From Betaproteobacteria bacterium (lineage in GTDB: Bacteria; Pseudomonadota; Gammaproteobacteria; Burkholderiales; JAEUOS01), in the NCBI GenBank assembly GCA_028292405.1, contig JAQGMJ010000083.1:148676-212675 (forward strand): DNA of 64,000 nt, in the 5' to 3' direction. The notes under the pieces were generated by a model. It ran no database searches. It saw only the letters and a list, made by a program, of their open reading frames with translations, and was not told where the DNA came from. A program made the translations under genes and the position numbers. This document shows, one piece after another, positions 38,575 through 56,700 of this stretch; position 1 is the stretch's first letter, and the number at the start of each line of letters is the position of its first letter.

Positions 38575-39059
38575 GTGCGACTCTTCTACTATTCGCCGAA
38601 GCATCCGCGTCAGGTGTGTCTGAAGGTTTAGTGCTGGCGGAGGAATGGCGGCGCGAGACCGGGAACGAGGCGCGATGGTGCTGGCCCTCGCATCTAGGCC
38701 TGCCGCCCGCATTGGGCACGGCCCCCGTGCGCAAGATACCGGCTTGCGACACTCCGGGCGCCGCGCTCTGGTTATCGCTATGCGATTCGTTGGCGCGCGG
38801 CGAAACGCCGCTGCTGGTACGACTCGGGCACTCGATTTTAGGTTTGCCGCAGTTGCGGCAGGTGGAGCAACTGTTCACGAAGAGCGACGCCGTGTTCGGC
38901 ATCACCGCCCTGGGGGACTATGCGCTGGTAGGCTTGGCGCGCGCGGTGCCCGAGTTTTTCGCCGGTATTCCGTGGGGTACGAACCAAGTGATGTCTGTCA
39001 CGCGCGCGCAGGCGAGGCGCTATGGCTGCAAGATCGGTGAACTGGCGCTCGACAGCTAA
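38571..39059 (+). CDS. Divergent DUF2064-like protein
   Basis: GTG at 38571 overlaps the upstream stop (GTGA). The C-terminal [37 protein letters not shown] matches the DUF2064 pattern, but the N-terminal nucleotide-binding-like motif is degenerate. Confidence 0.55.
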
Positions 39060-40405: not shown

Positions 40406-40451
40406 GCGGGTTCAGGTCAGGGTAGGGCGGGAGGCGCGCGTAAGCGCCGGG

Positions 40452-41165
40452 TCAGTCCGGAACGAACACATAGCCGAAGCCCCACACCGTCTGGATATAG
40501 CGCGGGTTGGCGGGGTCGGTTTCGATCAGCTTGCGCAGGCGCGAGATCTGCACGTCGATGGCGCGGTCGAACACGTCGTACTCGCGGCCGCGCGCCAGTT
40601 CCATTAGCTTGTCGCGCGACAGCGGCTTGCGCGGGTTGCGCGCCAGCACTTTGAGCACCGAGAATTCGCCCGAGGTGAGGGTGACGGCTTCGCCGTCCCT
40701 GGTCATGCTGCGGGTGGCGAGGTTGAGCACGTAGGGACCGAAGCTGACCGATTCCGTTTCCTGCGCGGGGCCTGCCGGCGGTCCCGTTTCGGCGACACGG
40801 CGCAGCACCGCGTTGATGCGCGCCACCAGTTCGCGCGGGTTGAAGGGCTTGGCGAGATAGTCGTCGGCGCCCATCTCCAGGCCGACAATGCGGTCCACTT
40901 CCTCGCCTTTGGCGGTGAGCATGATGATGGGGGTGTTGTTGCCGGCGGCACGCAGGCGGCGGCAGATCGCCAGGCCGTCTTCCTGCGGCATCATGAGATC
41001 AAGGACGATGAGGTCGAACAGTTCACGGTTGAGCAGCTTGTCCATGAACTGGCCGCCGGGCGCCGCCTGCACGGCGAAGTCCTGCTCGGTGAGGTAGCGC
41101 AGCAGCAAGTCGCGCAAGCCCTTGTCGTCGTCGACGATAAGGATTTTTCGTTTTTGGGCCGTCAT
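40452..41165 (-). CDS. ompR: Response regulator OmpR
   Basis: ATG at 41165 (MTAQKRKILIVDDD). The receiver domain has LIVLDLMMP and LTAKG. The winged-helix C-terminus reads YIQTVWGFGYVFVPD. Confidence 0.92.
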   Translation of the reverse strand: MTAQKRKILIVDDDKGLRDLLLRYLTEQDFAVQAAPGGQFMDKLLNRELFDLIVLDLMMPQEDGLAICRRLRAAGNNTPIIMLTAKGEEVDRIVGLEMGADDYLAKPFNPRELVARINAVLRRVAETGPPAGPAQETESVSFGPYVLNLATRSMTRDGEAVTLTSGEFSVLKVLARNPRKPLSRDKLMELARGREYDVFDRAIDVQISRLRKLIETDPANPRYIQTVWGFGYVFVPD

Positions 41166-41527
41166 AGAATGGTGCGCAGGCGTCGGCACGTAGAGTCGAT
41201 TTGCCACATCTTAGCGCCATCGGCCCGAATACGCGCGGATGCGCTTGTTAAAGGCGTGTCTCGAATTGCAACAAGGTGTAACGCCAGTATTCACTCCTGT
41301 TGACGGGGCATGCAAGCAATCCATCGCGGCTTTTTCGCCGGTCGCCGTGCGGGAAAACCCGTGTGCGGCGCGCTATTGCAATTCGCGTTAAAGCTGCTAA
41401 TGTAGCGAATTATTATCCAGTTCGTTAATTGGCTCGCATCAAAATGCATCAATAGACCGCTTTCACCCAGCGCCGCTTTTAAAAATAATGCGGACGCATC
41501 TAAAACCATCCTGAAAAAGGAGGAGAC

Positions 41528-42904
41528 ATGCAGTTGAATAAAATCGCCGTAGCCTTGGTGACGGGTGCGGCCATGCTGTTTGGTGCTGCCACCGCGCAGG
41601 CCCAGCAAAAGCTTACCGTCTGGTGGGTCAAGGGCTTCTATAAATCCGAAGACGACGCGCTTTACGACGCGATCAAGAAGTACGAAGCCAAGACCGGCGT
41701 CAAGGTCGAGCTTTCGCAATACCCGATCCAGGACATGATCCCCAAGACCGTGTCCGCGCTGGACTCGGGCAGCCCGCCGGACGTGGCTTATGCCGACGTC
41801 TACGACTTCCAGGTCGCCGGCAAGTGGGCTTTCGACGGCAAGCTCGAAGACATCAGCGACGTGCTCACGCCGATGAAGGACCGTTTCGCCAAGAACACCC
41901 TGGAGACGGCCCACCTGTACAACGACAAGACCAAGAAGCGCGCCTATTACGCCTTCCCGATGAAGCAGCAGACCATGCACATCGAGGTCTGGTCCGACAT
42001 GCTGGCGAAAGCGGGTTACAAAATCAGCGACCTGCCCACCAAGTGGGCCGACTACTGGAACTTCTGGTGCGAGAAGGTGCAGCCGGCCTACCGCAAGGCC
42101 AGCGGCGACCGCGTGTTCGCCATCGGCATGCCGATGGGCGTGGACTCTTCCGACGCCTTTTACTCCTTCCTCACCTTCATGGACGCCTACAACGTCAAGC
42201 TGGTGGACGACAACGGCAAGCTGCTGGTCGACGACCCCAAGGTGAAGGCCGGCCTGATCAACGCGCTGCGCGACTACACCATGCCTTACATGAAAGGCTG
42301 CTCGCCGCCTTCTTCGACCAGCTGGAAGGACCCGGACAACAACGTCGCCTTCCACAACAAGACCACCATCATGACCCACAACGCGACGATCTCGATCGCC
42401 GCCAAGTGGCTCGACGACGCCAACAACGCCACCCTCACGACAGAGCAGCGCGCCGCGGCGAAGAAGGCCTACGACGAGACGATCTACACCCTGGGCTTCC
42501 CCAACAAGCCGGACGGCTCGAAGATGGTCTACCGCACGGCCGTCAAGCTGGGCGTGGTGTTCGAACAGTCGAAGAACAAGGCGCTGGCGAAAGACTTCGT
42601 CAAGTTCATGATGATCGAGCAGAACCTCGGGCCCTACGTTGAAGGTTCCTTGGGCCGCTGGTTCCCGGTGACTAAGGAGGGGCAGGCGAGCGCTTTCTGG
42701 CAGGCCGACAAGCATCGCAAGTCGGTGTTCAACCAGTATGCCGCCGGCACTGTCACTTTCGAGTTCACGAAGAACTATAAATTTACGATTCTCAACAACG
42801 AGAACGTCTGGGCCAAGGCGATGAACCGCGTGGTCAACGACAAGATTCCCGTCGACAAGGCGGTTGATGAAATGATCGCCCGCATCAAGGCAGTGGCGGG
42901 CTAA
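41528..42904 (+). CDS. ABC transporter substrate-binding protein (carbohydrate-type, Sec signal)
   Basis: ATG at 41528 with AAGGAGGAG upstream. Signal peptide MQLNKIAVALVTGAAMLFGAATAQA. The size and composition fit family-1 solute-binding proteins. Confidence 0.85.
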   Translation: MQLNKIAVALVTGAAMLFGAATAQAQQKLTVWWVKGFYKSEDDALYDAIKKYEAKTGVKVELSQYPIQDMIPKTVSALDSGSPPDVAYADVYDFQVAGKWAFDGKLEDISDVLTPMKDRFAKNTLETAHLYNDKTKKRAYYAFPMKQQTMHIEVWSDMLAKAGYKISDLPTKWADYWNFWCEKVQPAYRKASGDRVFAIGMPMGVDSSDAFYSFLTFMDAYNVKLVDDNGKLLVDDPKVKAGLINALRDYTMPYMKGCSPPSSTSWKDPDNNVAFHNKTTIMTHNATISIAAKWLDDANNATLTTEQRAAAKKAYDETIYTLGFPNKPDGSKMVYRTAVKLGVVFEQSKNKALAKDFVKFMMIEQNLGPYVEGSLGRWFPVTKEGQASAFWQADKHRKSVFNQYAAGTVTFEFTKNYKFTILNNENVWAKAMNRVVNDKIPVDKAVDEMIARIKAVAG

Positions 42905-42970
42905 GCAAGAGTGCGGGCCGCCCCTGACCGGAGCGGCTCGCGTATTTTCCAGAAGACGAGGTGATCCCAG

Positions 42971-43852
42971 ATGTCTTCCGTCGCACTGCCTGAAGCCGCC
43001 GGCGCGCAACTGGCCGCGCCTGCGAAAAAAAAGGGCCTGTCCCCCTGGGAAACCTGGGGCCTGGTGCTGATCGCGCCCTACGTGCTGGTGTTCCTGATTT
43101 TCGTGCTCTACCCGGTGTGCTACGGCCTCTGGCTGGCGCGCCATCCCGAGAGCTACGTCAAGCTGTACAACGACCCGGTGTTTTTCCGCTCGGTCGTCAA
43201 CACGCTCGTCTTCCTGGTGATCGGCATCAACATCAAGATGGTGATCGCCTTGTTCCTGTCGGGCTTTTTCGTTACTGCGCGCACCTGGATCAAGTGGCTG
43301 TCGCTGCTGTTCATTTTGCCGTGGGCGATGCCGTCGATTCCGACCATCCTTTCGCTGCGCTTCATGCTCAACCCCGAGTGGGGGTTGATCAACTCCCTGA
43401 TCTTCCGCTTCACCGGCGCGGACGGGCCGAACTGGCTCAACGACCCGTATCTCGCCCTGACCCTGGCGATACTCACGCACATCTGGAAGTCGCTGCCGTT
43501 CTGGACTTTGATCCTGGTGGCCGGGCGCCTGGCGATTCCCGGCGAGCTTTACGAGGCTGCGTCGGTGGACGGCGCCACCACCTGGCAGAAATTCCGCTTC
43601 ATTACCTGGCCGTCGATGAAGACGCTGTATCTCACCTCCACCATCCTGTCGATGATCTGGACCCTGGGCGACTTCAACAGCGTCTACCTGCTTACCGGCG
43701 GCGCGCCGGCCGACCAGACGCACGTGCTGGCCACGCTCGGCATCCGCTACCTGCGTCTGGATGAGGTGGACATGTCGATGGCTTCCATCGTCGTCGCCCT
43801 GCCGCTGATGTTGCCGCTGGTCTACTTCATGATGAAGCGTTTGTCCAAGTGA
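42971..43852 (+). CDS. ABC transporter permease (MalF/UgpA-like)
   Basis: Six hydrophobic segments and an EAA-loop region ELYEAASVDGATTWQKFRFITWP. Confidence 0.88.
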   Translation: MSSVALPEAAGAQLAAPAKKKGLSPWETWGLVLIAPYVLVFLIFVLYPVCYGLWLARHPESYVKLYNDPVFFRSVVNTLVFLVIGINIKMVIALFLSGFFVTARTWIKWLSLLFILPWAMPSIPTILSLRFMLNPEWGLINSLIFRFTGADGPNWLNDPYLALTLAILTHIWKSLPFWTLILVAGRLAIPGELYEAASVDGATTWQKFRFITWPSMKTLYLTSTILSMIWTLGDFNSVYLLTGGAPADQTHVLATLGIRYLRLDEVDMSMASIVVALPLMLPLVYFMMKRLSK

Positions 43853-43868
43853 GCCAAGCGAGAAAGCC

Positions 43869-44762
43869 ATGAGCGCCATCCCTTCCCAGATAGTCGCCGT
43901 GAAACTGCCCGCCAGGCCCTTCAGCTGGCGCCGCGTGGCCACCGAAGCCAAGCTGCTGCTGATCGGCATTCCCGTGCTGATCTGGACCATGATCCCGATC
44001 TATCACCTCGTGCTGTTCGCCATTTCGCCCAAGGAATCGGCGCTCTCCGGCAAGATGTGGCCGGACCATCCGACCCTGCACAACTTCAGCGTGGTGTTTC
44101 ACCAGCAGCACCACTATCTGTTCCACTTCTGGCAGCAGATGTGGAACTCGCTGCTGATCGCGGTGGCCGCCGGCGCACTCACCCTGCTGATCGCCACCGG
44201 CGCGGCGTTTTCCATCAGCCGCCTCAAGGTCAGGGGCGGGCGCGCCATCATGAACCTGGCACTGTTCACCTACTTCATCCCCGCCGCTTTTCTCGCGGTG
44301 CCGATGTACAAGACCATGGGCAACTATGGCCTGCTGAACAACCAGTGGGCGCTGATCCTCGCGATGGTCACCATCGCCTCGCCCTACGCCATTTGGGTGC
44401 TCAAGCAGGCCTCCGACAAGCTGCCCTATGAACTGGACGAGGCGGCCATCATGGACGGCGCCACGCCCCTGCAGCTATTCCGCCTGGTCTATGTGCCGCT
44501 GATGATGCCTTCGCTGGTGGCCGTCGGCACCTACGCATTGTTGCTGACCTGGAACGAATACCTCTACGCCTTCCTGCTGCTCTCGCGCGACGACAGCATC
44601 ACCCTGGGCGTCGCGCTGGGCAACTTTCTTTCGGCCGACGACTCGCCGTGGGAACTGCTGATGACCACCGGCCTGTTGTACGCGCTGCCGCCGGCGGCGA
44701 TCTACTACTGTTTCAAGCGCTACATGGTGTCCGGATTGACCGAGGGCGCCGTCAAGAGCTGA
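43869..44762 (+). CDS. ABC transporter permease (MalG/UgpE-like)
   Basis: EAA-loop ELDEAAIMDGATPLQLFRLVYVPLMMP and a polytopic membrane profile. Confidence 0.88.
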   Translation: MSAIPSQIVAVKLPARPFSWRRVATEAKLLLIGIPVLIWTMIPIYHLVLFAISPKESALSGKMWPDHPTLHNFSVVFHQQHHYLFHFWQQMWNSLLIAVAAGALTLLIATGAAFSISRLKVRGGRAIMNLALFTYFIPAAFLAVPMYKTMGNYGLLNNQWALILAMVTIASPYAIWVLKQASDKLPYELDEAAIMDGATPLQLFRLVYVPLMMPSLVAVGTYALLLTWNEYLYAFLLLSRDDSITLGVALGNFLSADDSPWELLMTTGLLYALPPAAIYYCFKRYMVSGLTEGAVKS

Positions 44763-44815: not shown

Positions 44816-45463
44816 ATGGCTGACCTCACACAGCGACTCCTCGCCTGCTACACCGGTGCGATCCACGACGTACTGCGCGCCTTGGGTCACGACAATTGCG
44901 TGCTGCCCACCAACATCCGCCCGCTCGACCCCGCGATCAAGACCGCCGGCCCGGTGTGGACCGTCTCCGGCCATATCGACCGCACGCAGTCGCGCCACGA
45001 CACCTTGCTCGGCTGGACCACGCTGCTGTCGAAGGCGCCGACCGGCCACGTGGTGGTCTGCCAGCCGAACAACCACGAAGTTGCGCTGATGGGTGAACTG
45101 TCGAGCGAGACTTTGAAGAATAAAGGCGTGCTGGGCTATGTGGTCGATGGCGGCTGCCGCGATACCGATTTCATCCTCGAACAAAAATTTCCGGTGTTCC
45201 ATACCTTTTTCACGCCCTCCGACATCGTCGCCCGCTGGATCCCCGACCGCTATGCCGAGCCGGTGACCATCGGCACCGTGACCATCCGCACTGGCGACTA
45301 TATTCTCGGCGACCGCGACGGCGTGGTGGTGATCCCAAAAGAGATTGCCGAAGAAGCCATCGGCAAAACCGAGGAAGTGGCGCTGACCGAAAACAAGGTG
45401 CGCGACGCCATCCGCGGCGGCATGGACCCGGTCGATGCCTACCTGAAATATGGGAAGTTTTGA
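44816..45463 (+). CDS. RraA-family protein (class II aldolase / oxaloacetate decarboxylase-like)
   Basis: RraA-fold motifs are present: ALMGELSSETLKNKGVLGYVVDGGCRD, GDYILGDRDGVVVIP. Confidence 0.85.
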   Translation: MADLTQRLLACYTGAIHDVLRALGHDNCVLPTNIRPLDPAIKTAGPVWTVSGHIDRTQSRHDTLLGWTTLLSKAPTGHVVVCQPNNHEVALMGELSSETLKNKGVLGYVVDGGCRDTDFILEQKFPVFHTFFTPSDIVARWIPDRYAEPVTIGTVTIRTGDYILGDRDGVVVIPKEIAEEAIGKTEEVALTENKVRDAIRGGMDPVDAYLKYGKF

Positions 45464-45749
45464 CTCGCGGGTGATCTTGCTGGCGCCGGAAGACAATTGC
45501 GTCGCCGTCGCTGCCACGCTTGCCGCCGGTACCCGGCTGCTGATCGACGGCGCCATGGTCTTGATCGAGCGCGACATCGGCATTGGCCACAAGCTGGCGC
45601 GCCGTGACATTGCTCCTGGCGAAAAGATACTCAAGTACGGTGCGATAATCGGCAGTGCGACCCGGCCAATTGCGCGGGGTGCGCACATCCACTTGCACAA
45701 TCTTGCCAGCGACTATCTTCCCACCTACACCTTGCCGCCCGCGGGCTGA
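45450..45749 (+). CDS. UxaA-family dehydratase, small N-terminal (SAF) subunit
   Basis: SAF-domain pattern LAPEDNCVAVAA..IGIGHKLARRDIAPGEKILKYGAIIGSATRPIARGAHIHLHNL. ATG at 45450 overlaps the RraA-like gene; an alternative GTG lies at 45471. Confidence 0.8.
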   Translation: MGSFDSRVILLAPEDNCVAVAATLAAGTRLLIDGAMVLIERDIGIGHKLARRDIAPGEKILKYGAIIGSATRPIARGAHIHLHNLASDYLPTYTLPPAG

Positions 45750-45776: not shown

Positions 45777-46580
45777 ATGCTCTGGCTGAGGCTGGCGGCG
45801 GTGCCCCTGGTGGTGTGGATCGCCAGCTGGGCCGGGCGGCGCTGGGGCCACAAGGCTTCCGGCTGGATCAGCGGCCTGCCGATGATCGCCGCCCCGGTGA
45901 TGCTGTTTCTCGCGCTGGACCAGCCGCGTGATTTCGTGCTGCCCACTGCCTGGATCGCGATGACGGTGGCGCCCGCTGTCGGCCTGCACTGCCTGGTGTT
46001 CGCGCGGCTTGCAACTCTGGTCACCCGCATGCGCGTGCGTCCCGCGCTGGCCTGGGTAGTATGCTTGCTGGCGGGCTGGGTGACGTGCGTGCTGGCGGAA
46101 CTCGCCCTGGCAGAGGTGGTGGTACCCAACTTCATCGGCGCCGCCGTTGCCGTGGTCGAACTGCTGTTGCTCAACGCGCTGATGCCTGTGCCCGGCGCGG
46201 TGGGCGCGGCACCGCGCATTCCGGCTAGCGAAATCTTCGTGCGCATGGGCGCGGCCCTGGCGCTGGCCGCCGTCATCACCGTCGGCGCCAATGCCTTCGG
46301 CCCGCGCGTCAGCGGCATCCTGCTGGGCTTTCCGATCACCGCTTCGGTGCTGCCGGTATTCACCCTGGTGCTGTACGGCGCCGACTCCGCCGTCCGCCTG
46401 CTCTCCGGCTTTCTCACCGGGCTGATCGGCTTCGTACTCTACTTTTTTGCCTTCGCCAGCGTGATCGCGGCGGGCGGCCCGCCGCTGGCCGCCTTCAGCA
46501 CCGGTGTCGCGGCCAGCCTGGCTTCGGCCGGGGCGATGGCCTTGTGGCATCGTTTCCGTTTCGCGCGGGAGCCGGCATGA
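45777..46580 (+). CDS. Polytopic integral membrane protein of unknown family (267 aa)
   Basis: ATG at 45777. It has about 7-8 hydrophobic helices and GC3-rich codons, and its stop overlaps the start of the UxaA large subunit (ATGA at 46577-46580). Confidence 0.7.
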   Translation: MLWLRLAAVPLVVWIASWAGRRWGHKASGWISGLPMIAAPVMLFLALDQPRDFVLPTAWIAMTVAPAVGLHCLVFARLATLVTRMRVRPALAWVVCLLAGWVTCVLAELALAEVVVPNFIGAAVAVVELLLLNALMPVPGAVGAAPRIPASEIFVRMGAALALAAVITVGANAFGPRVSGILLGFPITASVLPVFTLVLYGADSAVRLLSGFLTGLIGFVLYFFAFASVIAAGGPPLAAFSTGVAASLASAGAMALWHRFRFAREPA

Positions 46581-47824
46581 GCACCGGCACTTTTCCGGCC
46601 CTGCGCGGCTATCCGCGCGCCGATGGCCGCAAGGGCATACGCAACGTGGTGGTGGTCGGCTACCTGGTCGAGTGCGCGCATCATGTCGCGCGCCATATCA
46701 CATCGCGCTTTACCGACCGTGAAGTGCACCTGATCGGCTTTCCCGGCTGCTACCCGAATGCCTATGCCGAGAAAATGATGCAGCGCCTGTGCACCCACCC
46801 GAATGTCGGCGCCGCGCTGTTGGTGTCGCTGGGTTGCGAGAGCATGAACAAGTCCTGGCTGGAGCAGCAGATCGCCGCCAGCGGCCGCCCGGTGCATACC
46901 CTCACCATCCAGAAAACCGGCGGTACCAAGAAGACCATTGCCGCCGGCGTCGAATGGGTGCAGTGGGCGCTGGACGAACTGGGGGGCATGGAGCCCGTGC
47001 CCATGGGTGTGGACGAACTGGTGATCGGCACCACCTGCGGCGGCTCCGACGGCACCAGCGGCCTTACCGCCAACCCCGCGGTGGGCCGCGCCTTTGACGC
47101 ACTGATCGCCGCCGGCGCCGCTTGCGTGTTCGAGGAGACCGGCGAGCTGATCGGCTGCGAGCCCCACATGGTGCAGCGGGCAGTCACGCCCGAACTCGGC
47201 GGTGAAATCATGCGCTCGATGGAAAAGGCCGCGCGCTATTACGCGACGCTGGGCTACGGCAGCTTCGCGGTCGGCAACTCGGATGGCGGGCTTACCACCA
47301 TCGAAGAAAAATCGCTGGGCGCCTACGCCAAGAGCGGCGCCTCTGCCATTAGCGGCCTGGTCAAGCCGGGCGATGTGCCGCCGAGCGGCAAGGGCGGCTT
47401 GTACTTGCTCGACGTGGTGCCTGACGGTGAAGTACGCTTCGGCTTTCCCAACATCAACGACAACGCCGAGCTGGCCGAGCTGATCGCTTGCGGCGCGCAC
47501 CTGATTTTGTTCACCACCGGACGCGGCTCGGTGGTCGGCTCGGCGATTTCACCGGTGATCAAGGTGTGCGCCAACCCGGAAACCTATCGCGCCATGCAGG
47601 ACGATATGGACATCGACGCCGGCAGCATCCTTGAAGGTCGCGCGACACTGGAAGAAGTGGGGCGGGAGATCTGCGACCGGGTGGTGGCCATCGGCAACCA
47701 GGTGCAAAGCAAGTCCGAGGAACTCGGGCATCAGGAATTCATTTTGACTTACAAATCCTTCGAGCCAATCGGCCCGGCCTGCTTGCCGGTATCGATGCCG
47801 TTCTCCATTGGAGCGGTGCGATGA
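46577..47824 (+). CDS. UxaA-family dehydratase, large catalytic subunit
   Basis: ATG at 46577 (MSTGTFPALRGYPRADGRKGIRN). It carries the altronate/galactarate dehydratase C-terminal pattern (LGCE, GTTCGGSDGTSGLTANPA, LFTTGRGS). Confidence 0.85.
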   Translation: MSTGTFPALRGYPRADGRKGIRNVVVVGYLVECAHHVARHITSRFTDREVHLIGFPGCYPNAYAEKMMQRLCTHPNVGAALLVSLGCESMNKSWLEQQIAASGRPVHTLTIQKTGGTKKTIAAGVEWVQWALDELGGMEPVPMGVDELVIGTTCGGSDGTSGLTANPAVGRAFDALIAAGAACVFEETGELIGCEPHMVQRAVTPELGGEIMRSMEKAARYYATLGYGSFAVGNSDGGLTTIEEKSLGAYAKSGASAISGLVKPGDVPPSGKGGLYLLDVVPDGEVRFGFPNINDNAELAELIACGAHLILFTTGRGSVVGSAISPVIKVCANPETYRAMQDDMDIDAGSILEGRATLEEVGREICDRVVAIGNQVQSKSEELGHQEFILTYKSFEPIGPACLPVSMPFSIGAVR

Positions 47825-48840
47825 GCGACACGCAGGACTGGGTCGATACCTTCACCAAGGCTGGGCTGACCGCGGCCGGCGAGATGCCATCGATCGAGCC
47901 GCTCACCGGCGGCGTGTCTTCCGACATAGTGCTGGTGCAAAGCGGCGGCCGGCGCTTTTGCGTCAAGCGCGCCCTGGCCAAGCTCAAGGTGGCGGCCGAC
48001 TGGCGCGCGCCGGTGGAGCGCAACCGCAGCGAGGCGGACTGGTTCGCCGTGGTCGGCGCGGTGCTGCCGCAGGCGGTGCCGAAAATCATCGCCGACCATG
48101 CGGATGAAGGCTGGTTCGCGATGGAGTATCTGCCGCCCGAGGAATATCCGTTGTGGAAGGCGCAGTTTCGCGATGGTGAGATCGATACGGGCTTCGCTGC
48201 CCAAGTAGGCGCCACGCTGGCGCAAATCCACGCTGCCACCGCCGGGCGCGCGGGAATGGCGCAGCGCTTCGCCACCGACCACATCTTTTTCCCGATACGC
48301 CTCGAAGCCTATTTGCTGGCGACTGCTGAAAAGCATCCCGAATGCGCCCCAGAGTTGCGTGCACTGGTCGAAGTCACCGTCAGCACCAAGCTCGCGCTGG
48401 TGCACGGCGACGTCAGCCCGAAGAACATCCTGCGCGGACCTCTCTCGTCGAAAAGCGCGGGACCGGTGTTTCTCGATGCCGAATGCGCCTGGTATGGCGA
48501 CCCGGCCTTCGACCTTTCGTTCTGCCTCAATCACATGCTGCTCAAATGCCTGTGGCGCCCGCAACATGCGGCGGCGTATTTGCGCTGTTTCGACGCGCTC
48601 GCCGCGGCTTATCTTGCCGGCGTGGATTGGGAGCCGGCGCAGCGCATCGAAGAGCGCGCCGCGCGCCTGCTGCCGGGGCTGTTCCTGGCGCGGGTGGACG
48701 GCAAGTCGCCGGTGGAATATGTGACAGAGGAAGCGCAAAAGCAGCAGGTGCGAAAAGTCGCCGTGCCCCTTCTGCAAACGCCGCCGCAACAACTGGCCGA
48801 TGTGCGCGCCGCCTGGGCAAGGGAAATGGGAGTGTCATGA
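47821..48840 (+). CDS. APH-fold (MtnK/choline-kinase-like) small-molecule kinase
   Basis: ATG at 47821 overlaps the upstream stop (ATGA). It has the Gly-rich LTGGVSSDIV, CVKRAL, the catalytic loop HGDVSPKNIL and the metal-binding DAECAWYGDPAFDLSF. Confidence 0.8.
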   Translation: MSDTQDWVDTFTKAGLTAAGEMPSIEPLTGGVSSDIVLVQSGGRRFCVKRALAKLKVAADWRAPVERNRSEADWFAVVGAVLPQAVPKIIADHADEGWFAMEYLPPEEYPLWKAQFRDGEIDTGFAAQVGATLAQIHAATAGRAGMAQRFATDHIFFPIRLEAYLLATAEKHPECAPELRALVEVTVSTKLALVHGDVSPKNILRGPLSSKSAGPVFLDAECAWYGDPAFDLSFCLNHMLLKCLWRPQHAAAYLRCFDALAAAYLAGVDWEPAQRIEERAARLLPGLFLARVDGKSPVEYVTEEAQKQQVRKVAVPLLQTPPQQLADVRAAWAREMGVS

Positions 48841-50108
48841 GCAAGAGCATCATCCAGCAGGTACGCGGCCGCCGCATCTGGGACTCGCGCGGCCGCCCGA
48901 CAGTGGAGGCCGAAATCACCCTGGCCGACGGCAGCGTCGGCTTCGGCCTGGCGCCGGCCGGCGCTTCGCGTGGTTCGCGCGAGGCGGTGGACTTGCGCGA
49001 TCCCGGCAAGAAACTTGGCGGCTTCGACATCGTCGGCGCAGTGGCGAATGTAAATGGCGAAATTGCCCAAGCGCTCATCGGCCTGGACGCCAGCGACCAG
49101 GCCGGCATCGACGCACGCCTGATCGCGCTCGACGGCACGCCGACCAAGTCGCGCCTGGGCGGCAACGCCACCATCGCCGCCAGCCTGGCCGCGCTGCACG
49201 CGGCGGCGGCTTCGGCACGCCAGCCGCTATGGCAATACGTCGCGCAGGGCAGGGCGGTGACCATGCCCTTGCCGGAAATCCAGATTTTCGGCGGCGGTGC
49301 GCACGCCGGGCGGCGCGTTGACATCCAGGACTTCATGGTAATGGCCCTGGGTGCGAAAAGTTTCGACCAGGCGCTGGAGTGGACCGCCGAGGTCTACCTC
49401 GCCGCCGGCAGCTTGATGAAAGCCGCCGGCAAGCAGGCCGGGGTGGCGGATGAGGGCGGCTACTGGCCGCTGTTCGCCGCCAACGAAGAGGCGCTGGAAA
49501 TGCTCACCCGCGCGATTGCCGCGGCCGGTTTCACCCACGAGCAGGTGGCGATTTCGCTGGACATCGCGGCTTCCGAATTCGGTTCCAACGGGCGCTACAA
49601 GCTGGGCCTTGAATCGCGCGAACTCGACACCAGCGGGCTGATCGACATGCTCGGCAAATGGATGGCGGCCTACCCCATCGTTTCTGTCGAAGACCCGCTG
49701 GCGGAAGACGACGAAGCCGGCCTGATCGAGTTCACCCGCCGTTTTGGTGCCAAGGTGCAGATCATCGGCGACGACTATCTCGTGACCAGCGCAGAGCGCG
49801 TGCAGCATGCCGCCGGCGCGGGCGCCTGCAATTGCGCCCTGATCAAGCTGAACCAGGCCGGCACCGTAACGGAGACAAAGGCCGCGCTGGACGCCGCCCA
49901 GGCCGCCGGCTGGAACACCGTCGTCTCCGCCCGTTCCGGCGAGACCGAAGACACCAGCATCACCCACCTGGCGGTCGGCTGGAACGCCGGCCAGCTCAAG
50001 GTCGGTTCCTTTTCCCGTTCCGAGCGCATGGCGAAATGGAACGAGGGCTTGCGCATCGAGGAGGCGACCCGGGCGCCGTTTGCCGGGCGCGGCGCGGTTT
50101 TCCGCTAA
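48837..50108 (+). CDS. Enolase-family protein, divergent paralog
   Basis: ATG at 48837 overlaps the kinase stop (ATGA). It aligns by eye with enolase throughout (DSRGRPTVEAE, GASRGSREA, VADEGGY, LDIAASEF, SVEDP, IGDD, IKLNQAG, SGETED, QLKVG). However, it reads IQDFMV where enolases have QEFM, and SARSGETED where they have SHRSGETED. Confidence 0.85.
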   Translation: MSKSIIQQVRGRRIWDSRGRPTVEAEITLADGSVGFGLAPAGASRGSREAVDLRDPGKKLGGFDIVGAVANVNGEIAQALIGLDASDQAGIDARLIALDGTPTKSRLGGNATIAASLAALHAAAASARQPLWQYVAQGRAVTMPLPEIQIFGGGAHAGRRVDIQDFMVMALGAKSFDQALEWTAEVYLAAGSLMKAAGKQAGVADEGGYWPLFAANEEALEMLTRAIAAAGFTHEQVAISLDIAASEFGSNGRYKLGLESRELDTSGLIDMLGKWMAAYPIVSVEDPLAEDDEAGLIEFTRRFGAKVQIIGDDYLVTSAERVQHAAGAGACNCALIKLNQAGTVTETKAALDAAQAAGWNTVVSARSGETEDTSITHLAVGWNAGQLKVGSFSRSERMAKWNEGLRIEEATRAPFAGRGAVFR

Positions 50109-50178: not shown

Positions 50179-50213
50179 GCATGCATAACTAGGTGTATTT
50201 GGAGACAAAAACC

Positions 50214-51290
50214 GTGGCATCGGTATCCATACAACAAACACAAAAGTATTTCGGCCAGACCCACATCATCAAGGGCGTGTCGATAGACATTGCCGACGGT
50301 GAATTCTGCGTCCTGGTCGGTCCCTCCGGCTGCGGCAAATCCACCCTCCTGCGCATGATCGCCGGCCTGGAAGAAATTTCCGGCGGGCAGATCTCCATCG
50401 GCGGCAAGGTGGTGAACAACATGCCGCCGAAAGAGCGCGACATCGCGATGGTGTTCCAGAATTACGCCCTGTATCCGCACATGACGGTGCGCGACAACAT
50501 GGCGTTTTCGTTGATGCTGGCCAAGCGCGAAAAATCGGTGATCGACGAGCGCGTCGGCAAGGCCGCAGGCATCCTCGGCCTCAATCAACTGCTCGACCGC
50601 TACCCGCGCCAGCTTTCCGGCGGCCAGCGCCAGCGCGTGGCCATGGGCCGGGCCATCGTGCGCGACCCGCAGGTGTTCCTGTTCGACGAGCCGTTGTCCA
50701 ACCTCGACGCCAAGCTGCGCGTGCAAATGCGCACCGAGATCAAGGAGCTGCACCAGCGCCTGAAGACCACTTCCATTTACGTCACGCACGACCAGATCGA
50801 AGCCATGACCATGGCCGACAAGATCGTGGTGATGCGCGACGGCCTGGTGGAACAGATCGGCACGCCGCTGGAGCTCTACGACAACCCGGCGAACCAGTTT
50901 GTCGCCGGCTTCATCGGCTCGCCGTCGATGAATTTTTTGCCGGGCACCGTCATGCGCAGCGGCGGCAATGTCGGTGTGCAATTATCCGACGGCGTGGTAC
51001 TGCAGATGCCCAGCGGTACCGCCGGGGCGGATGGCCAGAAGGTGATTTTCGGCACCCGGCCCGAGCATGTCGAACTGGTGGGCGGCAGCGAGGGTGTGGC
51101 GGCGGAAGTCGTGGTGGTCGAGCCTACCGGCGCCGACACCCAGGTGTATTCGAAAATCTCCGGCACCGAAGTCACCACCATATTCCGCGAGCGCCATGAC
51201 TTCAAGCCGGGCTCGACCATCCGTCTACGCCCCGATCCTACGCGCGCCCATCTTTTCGATGCCGCTAATGGCAACCGGCTGGCCGCCTAG
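50214..51290 (+). CDS. ABC transporter ATP-binding protein (MalK/UgpC-like)
   Basis: GTG at 50214 with GGAG 9 nt upstream. It has Walker A GPSGCGKST, the signature LSGGQRQRVAMGRA, Walker B FLFDEPLSNLD, and a C-terminal TOBE-like domain. Confidence 0.9.
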   Translation: MASVSIQQTQKYFGQTHIIKGVSIDIADGEFCVLVGPSGCGKSTLLRMIAGLEEISGGQISIGGKVVNNMPPKERDIAMVFQNYALYPHMTVRDNMAFSLMLAKREKSVIDERVGKAAGILGLNQLLDRYPRQLSGGQRQRVAMGRAIVRDPQVFLFDEPLSNLDAKLRVQMRTEIKELHQRLKTTSIYVTHDQIEAMTMADKIVVMRDGLVEQIGTPLELYDNPANQFVAGFIGSPSMNFLPGTVMRSGGNVGVQLSDGVVLQMPSGTAGADGQKVIFGTRPEHVELVGGSEGVAAEVVVVEPTGADTQVYSKISGTEVTTIFRERHDFKPGSTIRLRPDPTRAHLFDAANGNRLAA

Positions 51291-51408
51291 ATTTTTCGTT
51301 TTACCATGGTTGCATCACCTTTGAGCCGGCCTGTTGCAGGGTAGGCTCAACTCAAACCAGAACGGGCAAAAACAGGGAATCACTGTTGCCCTCACAGGAG
51401 ACAAAAAA

Positions 51409-52731
51409 ATGGTTCATCACACGCGCCGCAAATTCATCAAGAGTTCGACCGCCGCCGCGGCCGTCAGCGCCGCTGCCGGCCCGCTGATCTGGGTCAAGGA
51501 CGCAAATGCCCAGTGGAATAACCAGGTAGAGAAGGGCGCCAAGCTGCGCGTGCTGCGCTGGAAGCGTTTCGTCGCCGGCGACGAAACGGTGTACCTGGAG
51601 AACGTCAAGAAGTTCAGCGAAAAATACGGCGTCGAAGTCAAGGTCGATAGCGAGTCCTGGGAAGACGTGCGCCCGAAGGCGGCTGTTGCCGCCAACGTCG
51701 GCAGCGGCCCGGACATCATCCTCTCGACCAACGACGACGCCAACCTCTATCCCGCCAAGCTGCTCGACGTCACTGATGTGGCCGACTACCTCGGGAAGAA
51801 ATACGGCGGCTGGTACCCGGTGTGCGAGCAATATCTGAAACCCGATGGGAAGAAGTGGATCGGCATTCCGCTGGGTGCGGCGGGCAACTGCATCGTCTAC
51901 CGTGAAAGCCAGGTGAAGGCGGCCGGTTTCGCCACCTTTCCGAAGACCACCGACGAATTCCTGAAGATGATGAAGGCCCTGAAGGAAAAGGGCACCCCCG
52001 GCGGTTTCGCGCTGGGCCACGCCACCGGCGACCAGGCCTGGGCCTTCTGGCTGGTGTGGGCCTTCGGCGGCAAGATGGTCGACAACAACAACAAGGTGGT
52101 GATCAACAGCCCCGAGACGGTCAAGGCGCTGGAGTACGTCAAGGAGTTGTACCAGACCTTCGTGCCCGGCACGCTTTCCTGGCTGGATCCGAACAACAAC
52201 AAGGCCTTCCTCGACGGCCAGTGCAGCGTCACCGCCAACGGCATCTCCGTCTACTACGCGGCGAAGAATGCGACCGACCCGAAGATCAAGGAACTGGCGG
52301 CCGACATCCAGCATGCCAATTTTCCGATCGGCCCGGCCGGCGTGCCCACCGAATTCAACCTGTTCTTCAACCAGATGGTCTTCAAGTACACCAAGTATCC
52401 GAAGGCGGCGAAGGAGTTTCTGCGCTTCATGATGGAAGAAGAGCAGTACGGCCCGTGGATGCAGGCCTCGATCGGCTACACCTGCCAGCCGCTGCGCGCC
52501 TACGAGAAGAACCCGATCTGGACCGTGGACCCGAAGCACACTCCATATCGCAACGCGATGAACGTGATGCGCCCCACCGGTTACTCCGGCAAGATGGGCT
52601 CGGGGTCGGCCGCGACCATGGCCGACTTCGTCATGCTCGACATGGTGGCCGAGGCCGCCTCGGGGCAAAAGACGCCGGCCGAAGCCGCCGCCCGCGCCGC
52701 GCAGCGCGCCACGCGCAACTACAAGGCGTAA
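51409..52731 (+). CDS. ABC transporter substrate-binding protein with twin-arginine (Tat) signal
   Basis: ATG at 51409 with AGGAGA upstream. The Tat motif reads TRRKFIKSSTAAAAVSAAAGPLIWVKDANA, followed by a family-1 SBP-like body. Confidence 0.85.
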   Translation: MVHHTRRKFIKSSTAAAAVSAAAGPLIWVKDANAQWNNQVEKGAKLRVLRWKRFVAGDETVYLENVKKFSEKYGVEVKVDSESWEDVRPKAAVAANVGSGPDIILSTNDDANLYPAKLLDVTDVADYLGKKYGGWYPVCEQYLKPDGKKWIGIPLGAAGNCIVYRESQVKAAGFATFPKTTDEFLKMMKALKEKGTPGGFALGHATGDQAWAFWLVWAFGGKMVDNNNKVVINSPETVKALEYVKELYQTFVPGTLSWLDPNNNKAFLDGQCSVTANGISVYYAAKNATDPKIKELAADIQHANFPIGPAGVPTEFNLFFNQMVFKYTKYPKAAKEFLRFMMEEEQYGPWMQASIGYTCQPLRAYEKNPIWTVDPKHTPYRNAMNVMRPTGYSGKMGSGSAATMADFVMLDMVAEAASGQKTPAEAAARAAQRATRNYKA

Positions 52732-52795
52732 AGCGCTAGTCGGCGGTAGCGCGGCTATCGCGATTTCCGCCGCCAATCAGCAAAAACGGATCACC

Positions 52796-53746
52796 ATGCA
52801 CGCAGCAGTCAAGGAACCCGCAGTACCCCGCGGCTCCGGCCTTGGGGCGCTCGGGCGCCTGTCCAACAACGTCACTTTTCTCGGCTTGCTGTTCATGCTG
52901 CCGGCGGCCGCGCTGCTGTTGGTGTTTCTCACCTATCCCCTGGGCCTGGGTATGTGGCTGGGGCTGACCGACACCAAGATCGGCCGCAGCGGCGAATTCA
53001 TCGGCCTGGAAAATTACCAGGCGCTTTGGGACGACGACGTGTTCTGGCTTTCGGTGCGCACCACCATCCTCTATACCTCGGTGGCGAGTTTTTTCAAGTT
53101 CGTGCTCGGCCTGTGGCTGGCGCTGCTGCTGAATCAGAACATCGCCTTCAAGTCGTTCATGCGCGCGATCCTGCTCTTGCCATGGATCGTGCCGACCACG
53201 CTGTCTGCCATCGCCTTCTGGTGGATCTACGACAGCCAGTTTTCCATCATCTCCTGGGCCCTGACGAAGATGGGCCTGATCCACGGCTACATCGACTTTC
53301 TCGGTGACGGCTGGAACGCGCGCTGGTCGGTGATCGCCGCCAACGTCTGGCGCGGCATCCCCTTTGTCGCCATATCGCTGCTCGCCGGCTTGCAGACCAT
53401 TTCGCCCTCTCTGTACGAAGCGGCGACCATCGACGGCGCCAGCCCCTGGCAGAACTTCCGCTTCATCACTTATCCGCTGCTCACGCCGATCATCGCCATC
53501 GTCATGACCTTCTCGGTGCTGTTCACCTTCACCGACTTCCAGCTCATCTACGTCATCACCCGCGGCGGCCCGGTCAACTACACCCACCTGATGGCCACGC
53601 TTTCTTTCCAGCGCGCCATTCCCGGCGGCAACCTCGCCGAGGGCGCGGCGATTGCCATGGCGATGGTGCCCTTTCTGATCGGCGCCATCCTGATCAGCTT
53701 TTTCGGCCTGCAGCGGCGCGCCTGGCAACAGGGTTCGAAGGATTGA
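52796..53746 (+). CDS. ABC transporter permease (MalF/UgpA-like)
   Basis: Polytopic profile with EAA-loop SLYEAATIDGASPWQNFRFITYP. Confidence 0.88.
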   Translation: MHAAVKEPAVPRGSGLGALGRLSNNVTFLGLLFMLPAAALLLVFLTYPLGLGMWLGLTDTKIGRSGEFIGLENYQALWDDDVFWLSVRTTILYTSVASFFKFVLGLWLALLLNQNIAFKSFMRAILLLPWIVPTTLSAIAFWWIYDSQFSIISWALTKMGLIHGYIDFLGDGWNARWSVIAANVWRGIPFVAISLLAGLQTISPSLYEAATIDGASPWQNFRFITYPLLTPIIAIVMTFSVLFTFTDFQLIYVITRGGPVNYTHLMATLSFQRAIPGGNLAEGAAIAMAMVPFLIGAILISFFGLQRRAWQQGSKD

Positions 53747-53750
53747 TGCG

Positions 53751-54650
53751 ATGAGCCAGACCGTCACTAGCAGCCCGCAGGCGCCGACCTATTCCGACGG
53801 CGGCATGGACTACCTGGTCACGCGCCAGCGCCGCTTTTTCACCGTGTTCCTGCCGCTGGCGGCGTTCACCTTCGTGCTGCTGTTTCCGTTCTACTGGATG
53901 ACGGTCACCACCTTCAAGCCGAACGAAGAGATGTACGACTTCAGCCACCACAACCCATTCTGGATCAACAGCCCGACGCTGGCCAACGTCAAGAAATTGT
54001 TGTTCGACACCGCTTATCCGCAGTGGCTGCTCAACACCATGATCGTCGCGGTGGCCTCCACCTTCATCGCCCTGTTCTGCAGCGTGCTGGCCGCCTACGC
54101 TATCGAGCGCCTGCGCTTCAAGGGCAGCAAGTGGGTGGGCTTGGCGATCTACGGGGCCTATCTGGTGCCTCCGTCGATCCTGTTCATCCCGCTGGCGACG
54201 ATGATCTTCAAGCTGGAGCTGTTCGACACGCGCTGGGCGCTGATTCTCAGCTATCCGACCTTCCTGATCCCGTTTTGCACCTGGCTGCTGATGGGCTATT
54301 TCCGCTCGATTCCCTACGAGTTGGAAGAGTGCGCGCTGATCGACGGCGCCACCCGCCTGCAGATATTGTGGAAGATCGTCCTGCCGCTCGCGGTGCCCGG
54401 CCTGATCTCCGCCGGCATCTTCGCTTTTACCCTGTCGTGGAACGAGTTCATCTACGCGCTCACCTTCATCTCCTCCTCGGAAGTGAAAACCGTCCCGGTG
54501 GGCGTGATCACCGAGCTGGTCGACGGCGATGTCTACCACTGGGGCGCGCTGATGGCGGGCGCCTTGTTCGGCTCGGTGCCGGTGGCCGTCCTGTACTCCT
54601 TCTTTGTCGAGTACTACGTCTCGGGCATGACGGGCGCGGTGAAGGAATAA
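53751..54650 (+). CDS. ABC transporter permease (MalG/UgpE-like)
   Basis: Polytopic profile with EAA-loop ELEECALIDGATRLQILWKIVLP. Confidence 0.88.
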   Translation: MSQTVTSSPQAPTYSDGGMDYLVTRQRRFFTVFLPLAAFTFVLLFPFYWMTVTTFKPNEEMYDFSHHNPFWINSPTLANVKKLLFDTAYPQWLLNTMIVAVASTFIALFCSVLAAYAIERLRFKGSKWVGLAIYGAYLVPPSILFIPLATMIFKLELFDTRWALILSYPTFLIPFCTWLLMGYFRSIPYELEECALIDGATRLQILWKIVLPLAVPGLISAGIFAFTLSWNEFIYALTFISSSEVKTVPVGVITELVDGDVYHWGALMAGALFGSVPVAVLYSFFVEYYVSGMTGAVKE

Positions 54651-54745: not shown

Positions 54746-55870
<1,125 letters not shown>

Positions 55871-55926: not shown

Positions 55927-56700
55927 ATGGAACTCGGTCTCAAGGGAAAAACAGCCATCATCACCGGCGCCACGCAGGGCATCGGCCGCGCTACCGCGGA
56001 ACGCCTGGCTGCCGAAGGCGCGAACGTAGTGATTTGCGCGCGGCGCCAGGAGTTGCTCGACGAAGTGGTGGGCGGCATCCGCGCCGCCGGCGGCAAGGCG
56101 CACGGCGTGAGCGCGGACGTCAGCAAGGCGGAAGACTGCGCGCGCATCGTCAGTGAAGCGGTAAAGGCCTTCGGGCGTATCGACATACTGGTCAACAACG
56201 CCGGCACTTCCAATCGCGGCAAGTTCGAGGAGGTGAGCGACGAGGTATGGCAGGCCGACCTTGATCTGAAAGTGTTCGGCGCCATTCGCCTGACCCGCGG
56301 GGTGATCCCCGAAATGCGCAAGCAGGGCGGTGGCCGTGTCATCAACCTCACCAACATCGGCGCCAAGCAGCCCAAGGCCGAGTCCATGCCCACCGTGGTC
56401 AGCCGTGCGGCCGGCCTGGCGATGACCAAGGCGCTGTCGAAGGAATTCGCCGCCGACAAGATACTGGTCAATACCGTGTGCATCGGACTGATCAAGGCCG
56501 GCCAGCACGACACCACCGCGGCCAAGCGCGGCATTCCGGTCGAGAAGCTTTACGAGGGAATGGGCAAGGAAATTCCGCTCGGACGGGTGGGCGAAGCGGC
56601 CGAAGTAGCCAACGTCATCACCTTCCTCGCCTCGGACGCCGCCAGCTACGTCACCGGCACCAGCATCAATCTCGACGGCGGCACCTCGGGCGTACTGTGA
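55927..56700 (+). CDS. SDR-family oxidoreductase (FabG-like)
   Basis: It has the cofactor motif TGATQGIGRA, NNAG, and an SDR-length body ending in GGTSG. Confidence 0.85.
   Translation: MELGLKGKTAIITGATQGIGRATAERLAAEGANVVICARRQELLDEVVGGIRAAGGKAHGVSADVSKAEDCARIVSEAVKAFGRIDILVNNAGTSNRGKFEEVSDEVWQADLDLKVFGAIRLTRGVIPEMRKQGGGRVINLTNIGAKQPKAESMPTVVSRAAGLAMTKALSKEFAADKILVNTVCIGLIKAGQHDTTAAKRGIPVEKLYEGMGKEIPLGRVGEAAEVANVITFLASDAASYVTGTSINLDGGTSGVL

Follow-up and report, generated by a model that had tools for sequence, protein, structure and literature searches.

What does an enolase do when two residues of its catalytic site have been replaced and its gene overlaps that of a kinase? The question is raised by a 64,000-nucleotide stretch (the window) of contig JAQGMJ010000083.1 from a Betaproteobacteria bacterium, in which the gene of a small-molecule kinase of the APH/MtnK fold runs into that of an enolase-family protein carrying Asp and Ala at the positions of yeast Glu168 and His373. 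To judge from their sequences, these Asp/Ala (D/A) enolases form an old and essentially monophyletic group within the enolase family. Whichever of the two genes one starts from, the other is near-obligately paired with it, in Proteobacteria and Streptomyces as well as in other bacteria. The most economical reading, to which we assign a probability of about 0.55, is that a glycerate-type 2-kinase is followed by a dedicated enolase-type dehydration to phosphoenolpyruvate (PEP). The features of the pair are listed below (positions are those of the window).

47821-48840, plus strand: small-molecule kinase of the APH/MtnK fold, 339 amino acids (Pfam APH, AlphaFold2 (AF2) model, profile comparison with the PDB)
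48403-48432, plus strand: catalytic loop HGDVSPKNIL of the kinase (homologue alignment)
48472-48492, plus strand: metal-binding motif LDAECAW (DxE) of the kinase, aligned with the DPEF motif of MtnK
48697-48720, plus strand: C-lobe motif DGKSPVEY of the kinase, family-specific and invariant in the alignment
48837-48840, plus strand: ATGA, overlap of the kinase stop and the enolase start (read from the sequence)
48837-50108, plus strand: D/A-clade enolase-family protein, 423 amino acids (Enolase_N and Enolase_C, TIGR01060, AF2)
48954-48986, plus strand: active-site lid PAGASRGSREA (canonical PSGASTGxHEA)
49290-49292, plus strand: Gly152 (yeast Asn155)
49329-49331, plus strand: Asp165, codon GAC (yeast Glu168)
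49404-49406, plus strand: Ala190 (yeast Leu193)
49446-49466, plus strand: ADEGGYW, with Ala204 (yeast Gly209), Glu206 (yeast Glu211) and Trp210 (yeast Ala215)
49929-49931, plus strand: Ala365, codon GCC (yeast His373)

The 423-residue protein matches Enolase_N (PF03952) and Enolase_C (PF00113) of Pfam (E=8e-43 and E=7e-86, respectively) and reaches 452 bits on TIGR01060, whose cut-off is 300, which is why databases name it phosphopyruvate hydratase. It is 43–49% identical to known enolases. Its AF2 model (predicted local distance difference test, pLDDT, of 91) superimposes on E. coli enolase (6bfy and 6d3q) with a Foldseek TM of 0.96 and a root-mean-square deviation of 1.6–1.7 Å. The register of the active site was set by aligning the protein with solved enolases (HMMER) and with yeast enolase (MAFFT): Ser39, His159, Gln167, Glu211, Asp246, Glu295, Asp320, Lys345, Arg374, Ser375 and Lys396 (yeast numbering) are kept, and this set of ligands and catalytic residues is also invariant in 40 clade members. 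A preliminary description of the window had proposed a full-length enolase with its metal ligands, catalytic Lys and acid Glu in place, and both alignments agree with it, down to the motifs that it quoted. The two replacements that it had read by eye, Glu168 by Asp165 and His373 by Ala365, with their codons, also hold: the register is unambiguous and both are conserved clade-wide. The solved enolases in the alignments all read SHRSGET, with His at 373. The window protein has the curated profile matches, the two-domain fold and the ligand set of the enolases, but not their Glu168/His373 pair. In the lid, the Ser that binds metal II is retained, while Thr40 and His43 are both replaced by Arg; the Arg at the Thr40 position is confined to a subclade, and T, M or K is found there elsewhere in the clade.

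In enolases, Glu168 and His373 contact the C3 hydroxyl and the catalytic water. The model is that of a structurally complete enolase in which the C3 side of the active site would be altered; the models confirm folds only, and what is said here of pocket geometry and size rests on residue identities and on published enolase structures. The invariance of the metal, base, acid, carboxylate and phosphate ligands argues that the enzyme should be active, with enolase chemistry. The sole segment of the AlphaFold model with a pLDDT below 50 is residues 154-159 (49296-49313), a loop which carries the phosphate-binding His156 and comes directly after the changed position equivalent to Asn155.

The substitutions are shared by a large family, where the preliminary description had seen a single paralogue. 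The closest database homologues (69–95% identity) carry QDF(M) and SARSGET in 120 cases out of 120. Among the near-full-length copies in the loci fetched for the comparison of gene contexts, 137 of 140 are Asp/Ala, and in the other three the motif pattern failed at position 168. A HMMER search was run against 1.84 billion cluster representatives and the best 150 (50%-identity clusters) were analysed: at positions 168 and 373, 81 are Glu/His, 52 Asp/non-His, six Glu/non-His and one Asp/His. The Asp group contains 40 Asp/Ala and five Asp/Gly representatives and a few in which Asp goes with another small or odd residue. The mixed states Asp/His and Glu/Ala occur once each among the 150. The association between the two positions gives a Fisher p of 2e-30, a value that takes no account of phylogeny, the Asp group being essentially one clade.

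Four more positions, which the preliminary description had not recorded, co-vary with these two: Asn155 becomes Ser or Gly, Leu193 becomes Ala or Thr, Gly209 becomes Ala, and Ala215 becomes Trp or Gly. Asn155 is Asn in 96% of canonical enolases. When the six signature columns are removed, a neighbour-joining tree still has one split that collects 41 of the 42 D/A and D/G sequences and only two of the 81 Glu/His sequences. On these alignments, the substitutions are due neither to chance nor to error. We define the clade by Asp168, Ala or Gly at 373, Ser or Gly at 155, Ala or Thr at 193 and Ala209, with the kinase immediately upstream or fused. The window enolase, with G152, D165, A190, A204, W210 and A365, falls on the D/A side of the split.

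Members of the clade are found in Burkholderiales, Rhizobiales, Rhodospirillales, Streptomyces and Vicinamibacterales, among others. In PLSDB, relatives are carried by 20 plasmids or chromids, one of which is a conjugative plasmid of Burkholderia pseudomallei, and this fits an accessory role. Cupriavidus necator, Rhizobium sp. CIAT894 and Paracoccus seriniphilus are among the carriers of the pair. No second enolase lies within the window, and the neighbourhood of a housekeeping eno was seen in none of the fetched loci. The earlier presumption that this copy is an accessory paralogue is therefore upheld by its plasmid-borne relatives and by the fetched loci. One Asp/Gly member (P0340, L177 8001-9296) lies in a polyketide synthase-like cluster with an AMP-ligase, a ketosynthase, a luciferase-like oxygenase and a ChaC-like protein, a context which suggests that the clade has been recruited into secondary metabolism. 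It has no adjacent APH-family kinase, and some offshoots of the clade may therefore have a different function.

The preliminary description had noted that the enolase start overlaps the kinase stop, and the coordinates of this ATGA are exact; a GGGAG lies a few bases 5' of the enolase ATG, before the overlap. It had also asked whether D/A enolases always occur with the kinase. An enolase-led scan of species-representative genomes returned at least 588 relatives, and a kinase-led scan of metagenomes with the pattern DGKSPVEY returned 585; 80 loci were kept from each, and the context counts given here cover at most 80 loci per scan, with open reading frames called heuristically in the fetched loci (GC3-based). 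The kinase is present in the flank of 77 of the 80 enolase-led loci, and the other three have too little flanking DNA. Conversely, in the kinase-led loci with enough room the enolase is directly downstream in all except two (L083 and L111), or about 97% in the reciprocal tests, and residue 373 is Ala in every readable enolase copy. The co-occurrence is near-obligate.

Of the 131 loci with the kinase upstream, 77 have a gap of -4 bp between the two genes and nine have one of -8 bp. Even clade members that are 42–47% identical to the query have an APH kinase immediately upstream. The two proteins are fused in a single open reading frame in P0247 (770 amino acids, confirmed on its contig at L081 252-2564), in P0288 (745 amino acids) and in P0241 (partial); the P0288 fusion has Gly at the position of His373. 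The conserved two-way pairing, the 4-bp overlaps and the fusions strongly indicate that the two enzymes catalyse successive steps, the kinase presumably first and the enolase second.

The kinase has a 100% identical counterpart in a metagenome-assembled genome of Betaproteobacteria and matches Pfam APH with E=1.7e-21. Its AF2 model (pLDDT 92) is closest in fold to MtnK (2pyw and 2olc, TMq of about 0.8 at 14–16% identity), and MtnK is also the only significant match of its profile in the PDB (E=8.5e-10). The catalytic loop is intact, as first described: across 41 homologues, H195, G196, D197 and S199-L204 are invariant and V198 nearly so, and the ATP-binding K49 and the motif LDAECAW are essentially invariant. 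The bilobal fold, the ATP-binding Lys, the HGDxxxxN loop and the DxE motif that characterize APH-fold kinases are all present. Many Arg and Lys of the C-lobe are also invariant, which suggests that the substrate may be anionic.

The kinase is not a member of the MtnK equivalog: it scores 42 bits on TIGR01767, against a cut-off of 275, and over the N-lobe only. None of the methionine-salvage genes mtnA, mtnB and mtnD was recognised in the neighbouring clusters and annotated records inspected. The glycerate kinase families (PF02595, PF05161 and class III) gave no match either, Pfam and NCBIfam returning only APH and a weak MTRK. We propose that it may work like a glycerate kinase without being a member of the known classes. 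Two other assignments were discarded. A methionine-salvage reading, in which MtnK would be followed by an "enolase" step, is rejected since the MtnK profile fails, no mtn genes were recognised in the neighbourhoods inspected and the enolase keeps its carboxylate ligands; an aminoglycoside-resistance APH is ruled out by the conserved pairing.

The other genes of the operon, to which the pair belongs, are the following.

41528-44762, upstream in the operon: binding protein and two permeases of a CUT1 ABC transporter
44816-45463, plus strand: RraA-like protein (the family includes class II 4-hydroxy-2-oxoacid aldolases)
45450-45749, plus strand: SAF-domain small subunit of a split dehydratase, 99 amino acids (Pfam)
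45777-46580, plus strand: multi-pass membrane protein, 267 amino acids, no Pfam family
46544-47824, plus strand: large subunit of the split UxaA/GarD-type sugar-acid dehydratase, 426 amino acids (GD_AH_second and GD_AH_C)
50193-54650, plus strand: CUT1 sugar ABC transporter (ATPase, binding protein, two permeases), 3' of the enolase
54764-55870, plus strand: glutathione-dependent formaldehyde dehydrogenase (class III alcohol dehydrogenase; TIGR02818, 615 bits for a cut-off of 544)
55927-56700, plus strand: oxidoreductase of the short-chain dehydrogenase/reductase (SDR) family (Pfam), after the formaldehyde dehydrogenase

The stop of the dehydratase large subunit overlaps the start of the kinase, again by ATGA, so that the kinase is coupled on its 5' side too, a point absent from the preliminary description. 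The genes of the two dehydratase subunits are separated by that of the membrane protein. The top NCBIfam match of the split enzyme is galactarate dehydratase, with a score far under the cut-off; its layout, a separate SAF subunit and a UxaA-type subunit, is presumably that of the sulfolactate sulfo-lyase SuyAB. The operon has two sets of CUT1 binding-protein and permease genes and a single ATPase gene (50193-51290). Genes for a sensor kinase of the RisS type and a response regulator of the OmpR type run divergently from it (39056-41207, minus strand), and no LacI or GntR regulator adjoins the pair of the window, unlike in most related clusters.

The neighbours in the window are not part of a conserved unit. 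The UxaA, SAF, RraA and first ABC genes are missing from most related loci, and a UxaA-type dehydratase lies beside the pair outside the window only in L033 and L034 among the loci compared. All that the closest relatives retain of them is the membrane protein, directly 5' of the kinase in L001, L003, L004 and L098, and the downstream ABC system, 3' of the enolase in L001-L004. Even at E=1, Pfam gives nothing for the membrane protein, and no sulfite-exporter family matched it; it may be an uncharacterised transporter tied to the pair. Genes for the NAD-dependent formate dehydrogenase (FdsB and FdsA) are found on the same strand 5' of the pair in seven related loci, for example L089, and together with the formaldehyde dehydrogenase of the window they make a link to C1 release possible.

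Beyond the pair, contexts differ widely between loci. On the conjugative plasmid of B. pseudomallei, an SDR, two UxuA-type dehydratases, GntR, a lactonase and an FAH hydrolase accompany the kinase and the enolase, together with a sugar ABC system and RraA. Plasmids of Paracoccus and Roseibium have LacI next to a kinase-enolase-FAH-SDR-(SDR)-ABC-SDR array, and L164 has a lactonase, an ABC system, UxuA, GntR, the kinase, the enolase and an SDR, with PEP carboxylase near the pair. In L033, the kinase and the enolase go with a full-length UxaA, an FAH-like gene and a xylose-isomerase-like TIM barrel, and they face a ketopantoate-reductase-like gene, a major facilitator superfamily (MFS) transporter and a D-2-hydroxyacid dehydrogenase. 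L163 (257-3290) has a clade member of 43% identity followed by a tightly packed PanB-like gene (E=7e-89), that is a ketopantoate hydroxymethyltransferase homologue, and an FAH hydrolase.

A cluster common to Streptomyces, Rhizobium, Trinickia and Variovorax combines a CtBP-like D-2-hydroxyacid dehydrogenase and the kinase with a cupin-enolase-VOC dioxygenase-like-binding protein-alcohol dehydrogenase-FMN reductase series, FAH, CMD and LacI. Between Actinobacteria and Alpha/Betaproteobacteria, a cluster of 11–13 genes with the variant enolase and the kinase is kept at about 60–70% identity (L167, L178 and L179 on Rhizobium plasmids, L012, L015, L048 and Streptomyces loci such as L032-L076); its VOC protein is HpaD-like, and ppc is added in Rhizobium. 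On three Rhizobium plasmids, ppc, the D-2-hydroxyacid dehydrogenase and the kinase are co-directional. A homologue of this dehydrogenase is the commonest neighbour of all: 47 of the fetched loci have one, and in 18 of them it adjoins the pair. Minimal operons also exist, which consist of an MFS transporter, the kinase and the enolase, and stand-alone pairs are found beside housekeeping genes such as glpK, formate dehydrogenase and rpoH. In Azospirillum brasilense Sp7 p1 (L171 953-10260), a PEP-mutase-family gene, an iron-dependent alcohol dehydrogenase, a TRAP transporter, a PhyH-type dioxygenase, GntR, the kinase and the enolase lie on one strand. The signature G152/D165/A190/A204/E206/W210/A365 is identical across the sugar-acid sets, the cluster shared with Streptomyces, the minimal operons and the stand-alone pairs, and a single lid residue varies between those contexts (both statements apply to the part of the clade with at least 60% identity). 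No canonical glycerate kinase is listed in the annotated clusters inspected.

An active site that is unchanged from one pathway to the next, a self-sufficient three-gene operon and the linkage to PEP carboxylase point to a small hub substrate and to PEP as the product. According to the reading that we favour, the kinase would act on a small 2,3-dihydroxy acid in its free form, most probably D-glycerate, and phosphorylate it at the 2-hydroxyl. The enolase partner would then remove the C2 proton via Lys337 and expel the C3 leaving group, with Glu206 as the acid, to give PEP; both the identity of the acid and the nature of the product are deduced from the contexts and the residues. The pair would be a portable end-piece, fitted to many peripheral pathways that release a C3 hydroxy-acid, and would send their carbon to PEP. 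The feeder routes could be non-phosphorylative oxidation of sugars or sugar acids, hydrolysis of 2,4-diketo acids by FAH-type enzymes, or reduction of hydroxypyruvate or tartronate semialdehyde. In the window, the pair would close an operon for the dehydration and cleavage of a sugar acid.

Several of the contexts should indeed yield glycerate, namely those with SDR, lactonase, UxuA/UxaA dehydratase, FAH hydrolase and RraA-like genes. D-2-hydroxyacid dehydrogenases convert hydroxypyruvate into D-glycerate, and in the gar pathway of E. coli a dehydratase and an aldolase produce tartronate semialdehyde, from which D-glycerate is then formed. FAH hydrolases split 2,4-diketo acids into pyruvate and a short acid in the L-fucose, L-rhamnose and pentose routes (PMC6336799). 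For hexose-derived substrates, the short acid released is glycerate. Among the genomes surveyed in another study, which were those encoding HomK or ThrB, 53–67% carry a known form of glycerate kinase (bioRxiv 10.1101/2024.10.14.618325), which leaves room for further, as yet undescribed, glycerate kinases.

Several points weigh against this reading. A kinase making ordinary 2-phosphoglycerate would need no private enolase, since the housekeeping enzyme would suffice, and for the glycerate 2-kinases already described (GarK, TtuD, GckA) we know of no systematic pairing with an enolase. The closest known relatives of the kinase phosphorylate the anomeric hydroxyl of a sugar rather than an alpha-hydroxy acid. 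The six co-varying positions, four of which change to smaller residues, look like a re-shaped pocket. Glu/His is near-universal in true enolases (81 of the 87 Glu-type representatives), and in yeast enolase the E168Q mutant is reportedly impaired about 1e5-fold and H373F nearly dead. The Azospirillum context is unlike the sugar-acid ones and has no obvious source of glycerate. Lastly, no experiment, PDB structure or paper was found that bears on the substrate of either enzyme.

The preliminary description had considered an altered substrate specificity plausible. The coupling, the six co-varying positions and the monophyly argue for a changed constraint at the C3 side, and the remodelled C3 pocket suggests that the phospho-intermediate may be a variant which is no substrate for the housekeeping enolase. 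The gene neighbourhoods argue in the opposite direction: they favour a common C3 metabolite with a hub role, and PEP as the product, which is also what a plain glycerate 2-kinase followed by an enolase would give.

In the strongest of the rival readings, which we nevertheless consider unlikely, the kinase would make a non-canonical C3 phospho-acid from which PEP is still released. The acid might be L-2-phosphoglycerate, the Lys and Glu swapping their roles as base and acid, or a 3-substituted 2-phospholactate that does not lose hydroxide but another group, for example sulfite in the case of 2-phospho-3-sulfolactate (the reaction of the phosphosulfolactate synthase ComA run backwards) or phosphate in that of 2,3-bisphosphoglycerate. 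ComA, "an enolase that is not an enolase", depends on Mg and catalyses addition and elimination at the C3 position of a three-carbon 2-phospho acid, PEP being the partner; although its protein family is unrelated to the D/A enzyme, it is a chemical precedent for such a leaving group. A substrate of this kind would explain why a dedicated lyase with a changed pocket travels with the kinase, and it agrees with the near-obligate coupling and the fusions, with the clade-wide loss of Glu168 and His373 alongside four further co-varying positions, and with the PEP linkage and minimal operons, which still fit a C3 acid. The TTT transporters upstream of the pair in Paracoccus and Roseibium, the FMN-dependent L-2-hydroxyacid dehydrogenase that adjoins it in L166 and the presumably SuyAB-like split lyase directly 5' of the kinase, and coupled to it, go in the same direction. 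However, the commonest neighbour is a D-specific 2-hydroxyacid dehydrogenase, which points to a D-configured acid, and the clade strictly retains Glu206, which serves as the acid when hydroxide leaves. With two carboxylates next to it, C3 would be an unfavourable place for a sulfonate or a phosphate because of repulsion. Among the nearby genes, no family of sulfite oxidases or exporters was recognised, and eliminating phosphate from 2,3-bisphosphoglycerate would waste ATP. The sulfolactate idea is kept as a minor rival.

The smaller residues that four of the signature positions acquire at or near the C3 side could also make room for a longer substrate. The pair would then be an ATP-dependent sugar-acid dehydratase: the kinase would act on O2 of a C4–C6 aldonate (e.g., erythronate, threonate or a hexonate), and the enlarged pocket of the enolase would give the enol-phosphate of a 2-keto-3-deoxy acid, which would be dephosphorylated, possibly with regeneration of ATP, and cleaved. 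The kinase-eno-FAH-SDR operons of Paracoccus and Roseibium, which have no separate dehydratase, speak for such a route; so do the PanB-like gene of L163 and the ketopantoate-reductase-like genes of L014, L033, L034 and L042, whose products act on 4-hydroxy-2-oxo acids, and the formaldehyde and formate dehydrogenase genes described above. We nevertheless find it improbable. The signature is constant between very different sugar contexts, unlike in real acid-sugar dehydratase families, many clusters already have a UxaA or UxuA dehydratase, the enol-phosphate would be stranded in minimal operons and stand-alone pairs, and the linkage to PEP carboxylase favours PEP itself. As for a redundant glycolytic isozyme with drifted substitutions, next to an unrelated kinase (a resistance APH or a methylthioribose kinase), it is essentially excluded. 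The protein does pass TIGR01060 and is called eno in databases, the kinase is nearest in fold to MtnK, and H373N yeast enolase is said to keep about 10% of its activity; but drift is at odds with the pairing across phyla, the translational coupling and the fusions, with substitutions that are fixed in every close homologue read and co-vary within a monophyletic clade, with the low score of the kinase on the MtnK model, and with neighbourhoods in which no salvage genes and no aminoglycoside-resistance context were seen among those inspected.

How far does the proposed glycerate-to-PEP pair depart from known systems? Compared with the enolases of EC 4.2.1.11 (E. coli 6bfy, Synechococcus 4rop, yeast 1one), the D/A enzyme has the same two-domain fold, Mg ligands, Lys base and Glu acid, and PEP is most likely its product too. 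It differs at Glu168, His373, Asn155, Leu193, Gly209 and Ala215, and in being a separate, accessory clade, often plasmid-borne and near-obligately linked to a kinase. The proposed role of the kinase, a last committed step by which a C3 hydroxy-acid derived from sugar acids, tartrate or glyoxylate enters lower glycolysis, is that of the glycerate 2-kinases of class I (GarK/GlxK), class II (the MOFRL enzymes TtuD and GckA) and class III, but its fold is unrelated to theirs (APH/MtnK, PF01636 being the only family matched). The UxaA/GarD-type dehydratase and the RraA-like protein of the window, a possible aldolase, mirror GarD and GarL in the GarD-GarL-GarR-GarK pathway of E. coli. With MtnK (TIGR01767; 2olc, 2pyw) the kinase shares the Lys/Glu arrangement of the N-lobe, the HGD loop and the DxE motif, but it is about 60 residues shorter and has no methionine-salvage neighbours.

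No characterisation of the D/A clade or of its pairing with the kinase was found in the full-text literature or in the PDB, and the database names are "phosphopyruvate hydratase" and "aminoglycoside phosphotransferase family protein". To our knowledge, the enolase subgroup has so far been treated as isofunctional, annotation pipelines naming all of its members phosphopyruvate hydratase. SCO7638 of S. coelicolor is simply called a second enolase in papers. What is new here is that enolase chemistry and fold come with a C3 site that has been remodelled and with a kinase as a new partner. It is possible, though we find it somewhat doubtful, that the D/A clade is the first branch of the enolases proper with a function other than the dehydration of D-2-phosphoglycerate. 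The new MtnK-like kinase would then make a phospho-acid that the housekeeping enolase cannot use, perhaps the L-enantiomer, a 3-substituted C3 acid or a longer 2-phospho-aldonate, and the remodelled enolase would convert it into PEP or an analogue. If this is true, several hundred species of bacteria, or more, have a new two-enzyme "phosphorylate, then eliminate" route.

About one in three of the 150 closest cluster representatives fall into a separate clade, in which two residues of the catalytic site have been lost and the partner is a kinase whose fold is not known to serve for small hydroxy-acids. Should the pair turn glycerate into PEP, the kinase would be a fourth, unrelated class of glycerate kinase, and gaps in the reconstructed catabolism of sugar acids, glyoxylate and tartrate would be filled for many Proteobacteria as well as for Streptomyces. 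Should the intermediate be something other than D-2-phosphoglycerate, the clade would bring a new reaction to one of the best-studied enzyme families. It would also serve as a natural experiment that shows what Glu168 and His373 contribute. In either case, flux models with a second enolase, such as perhaps that of Streptomyces, may have to be revised, and so may the annotation of many genes as "eno".

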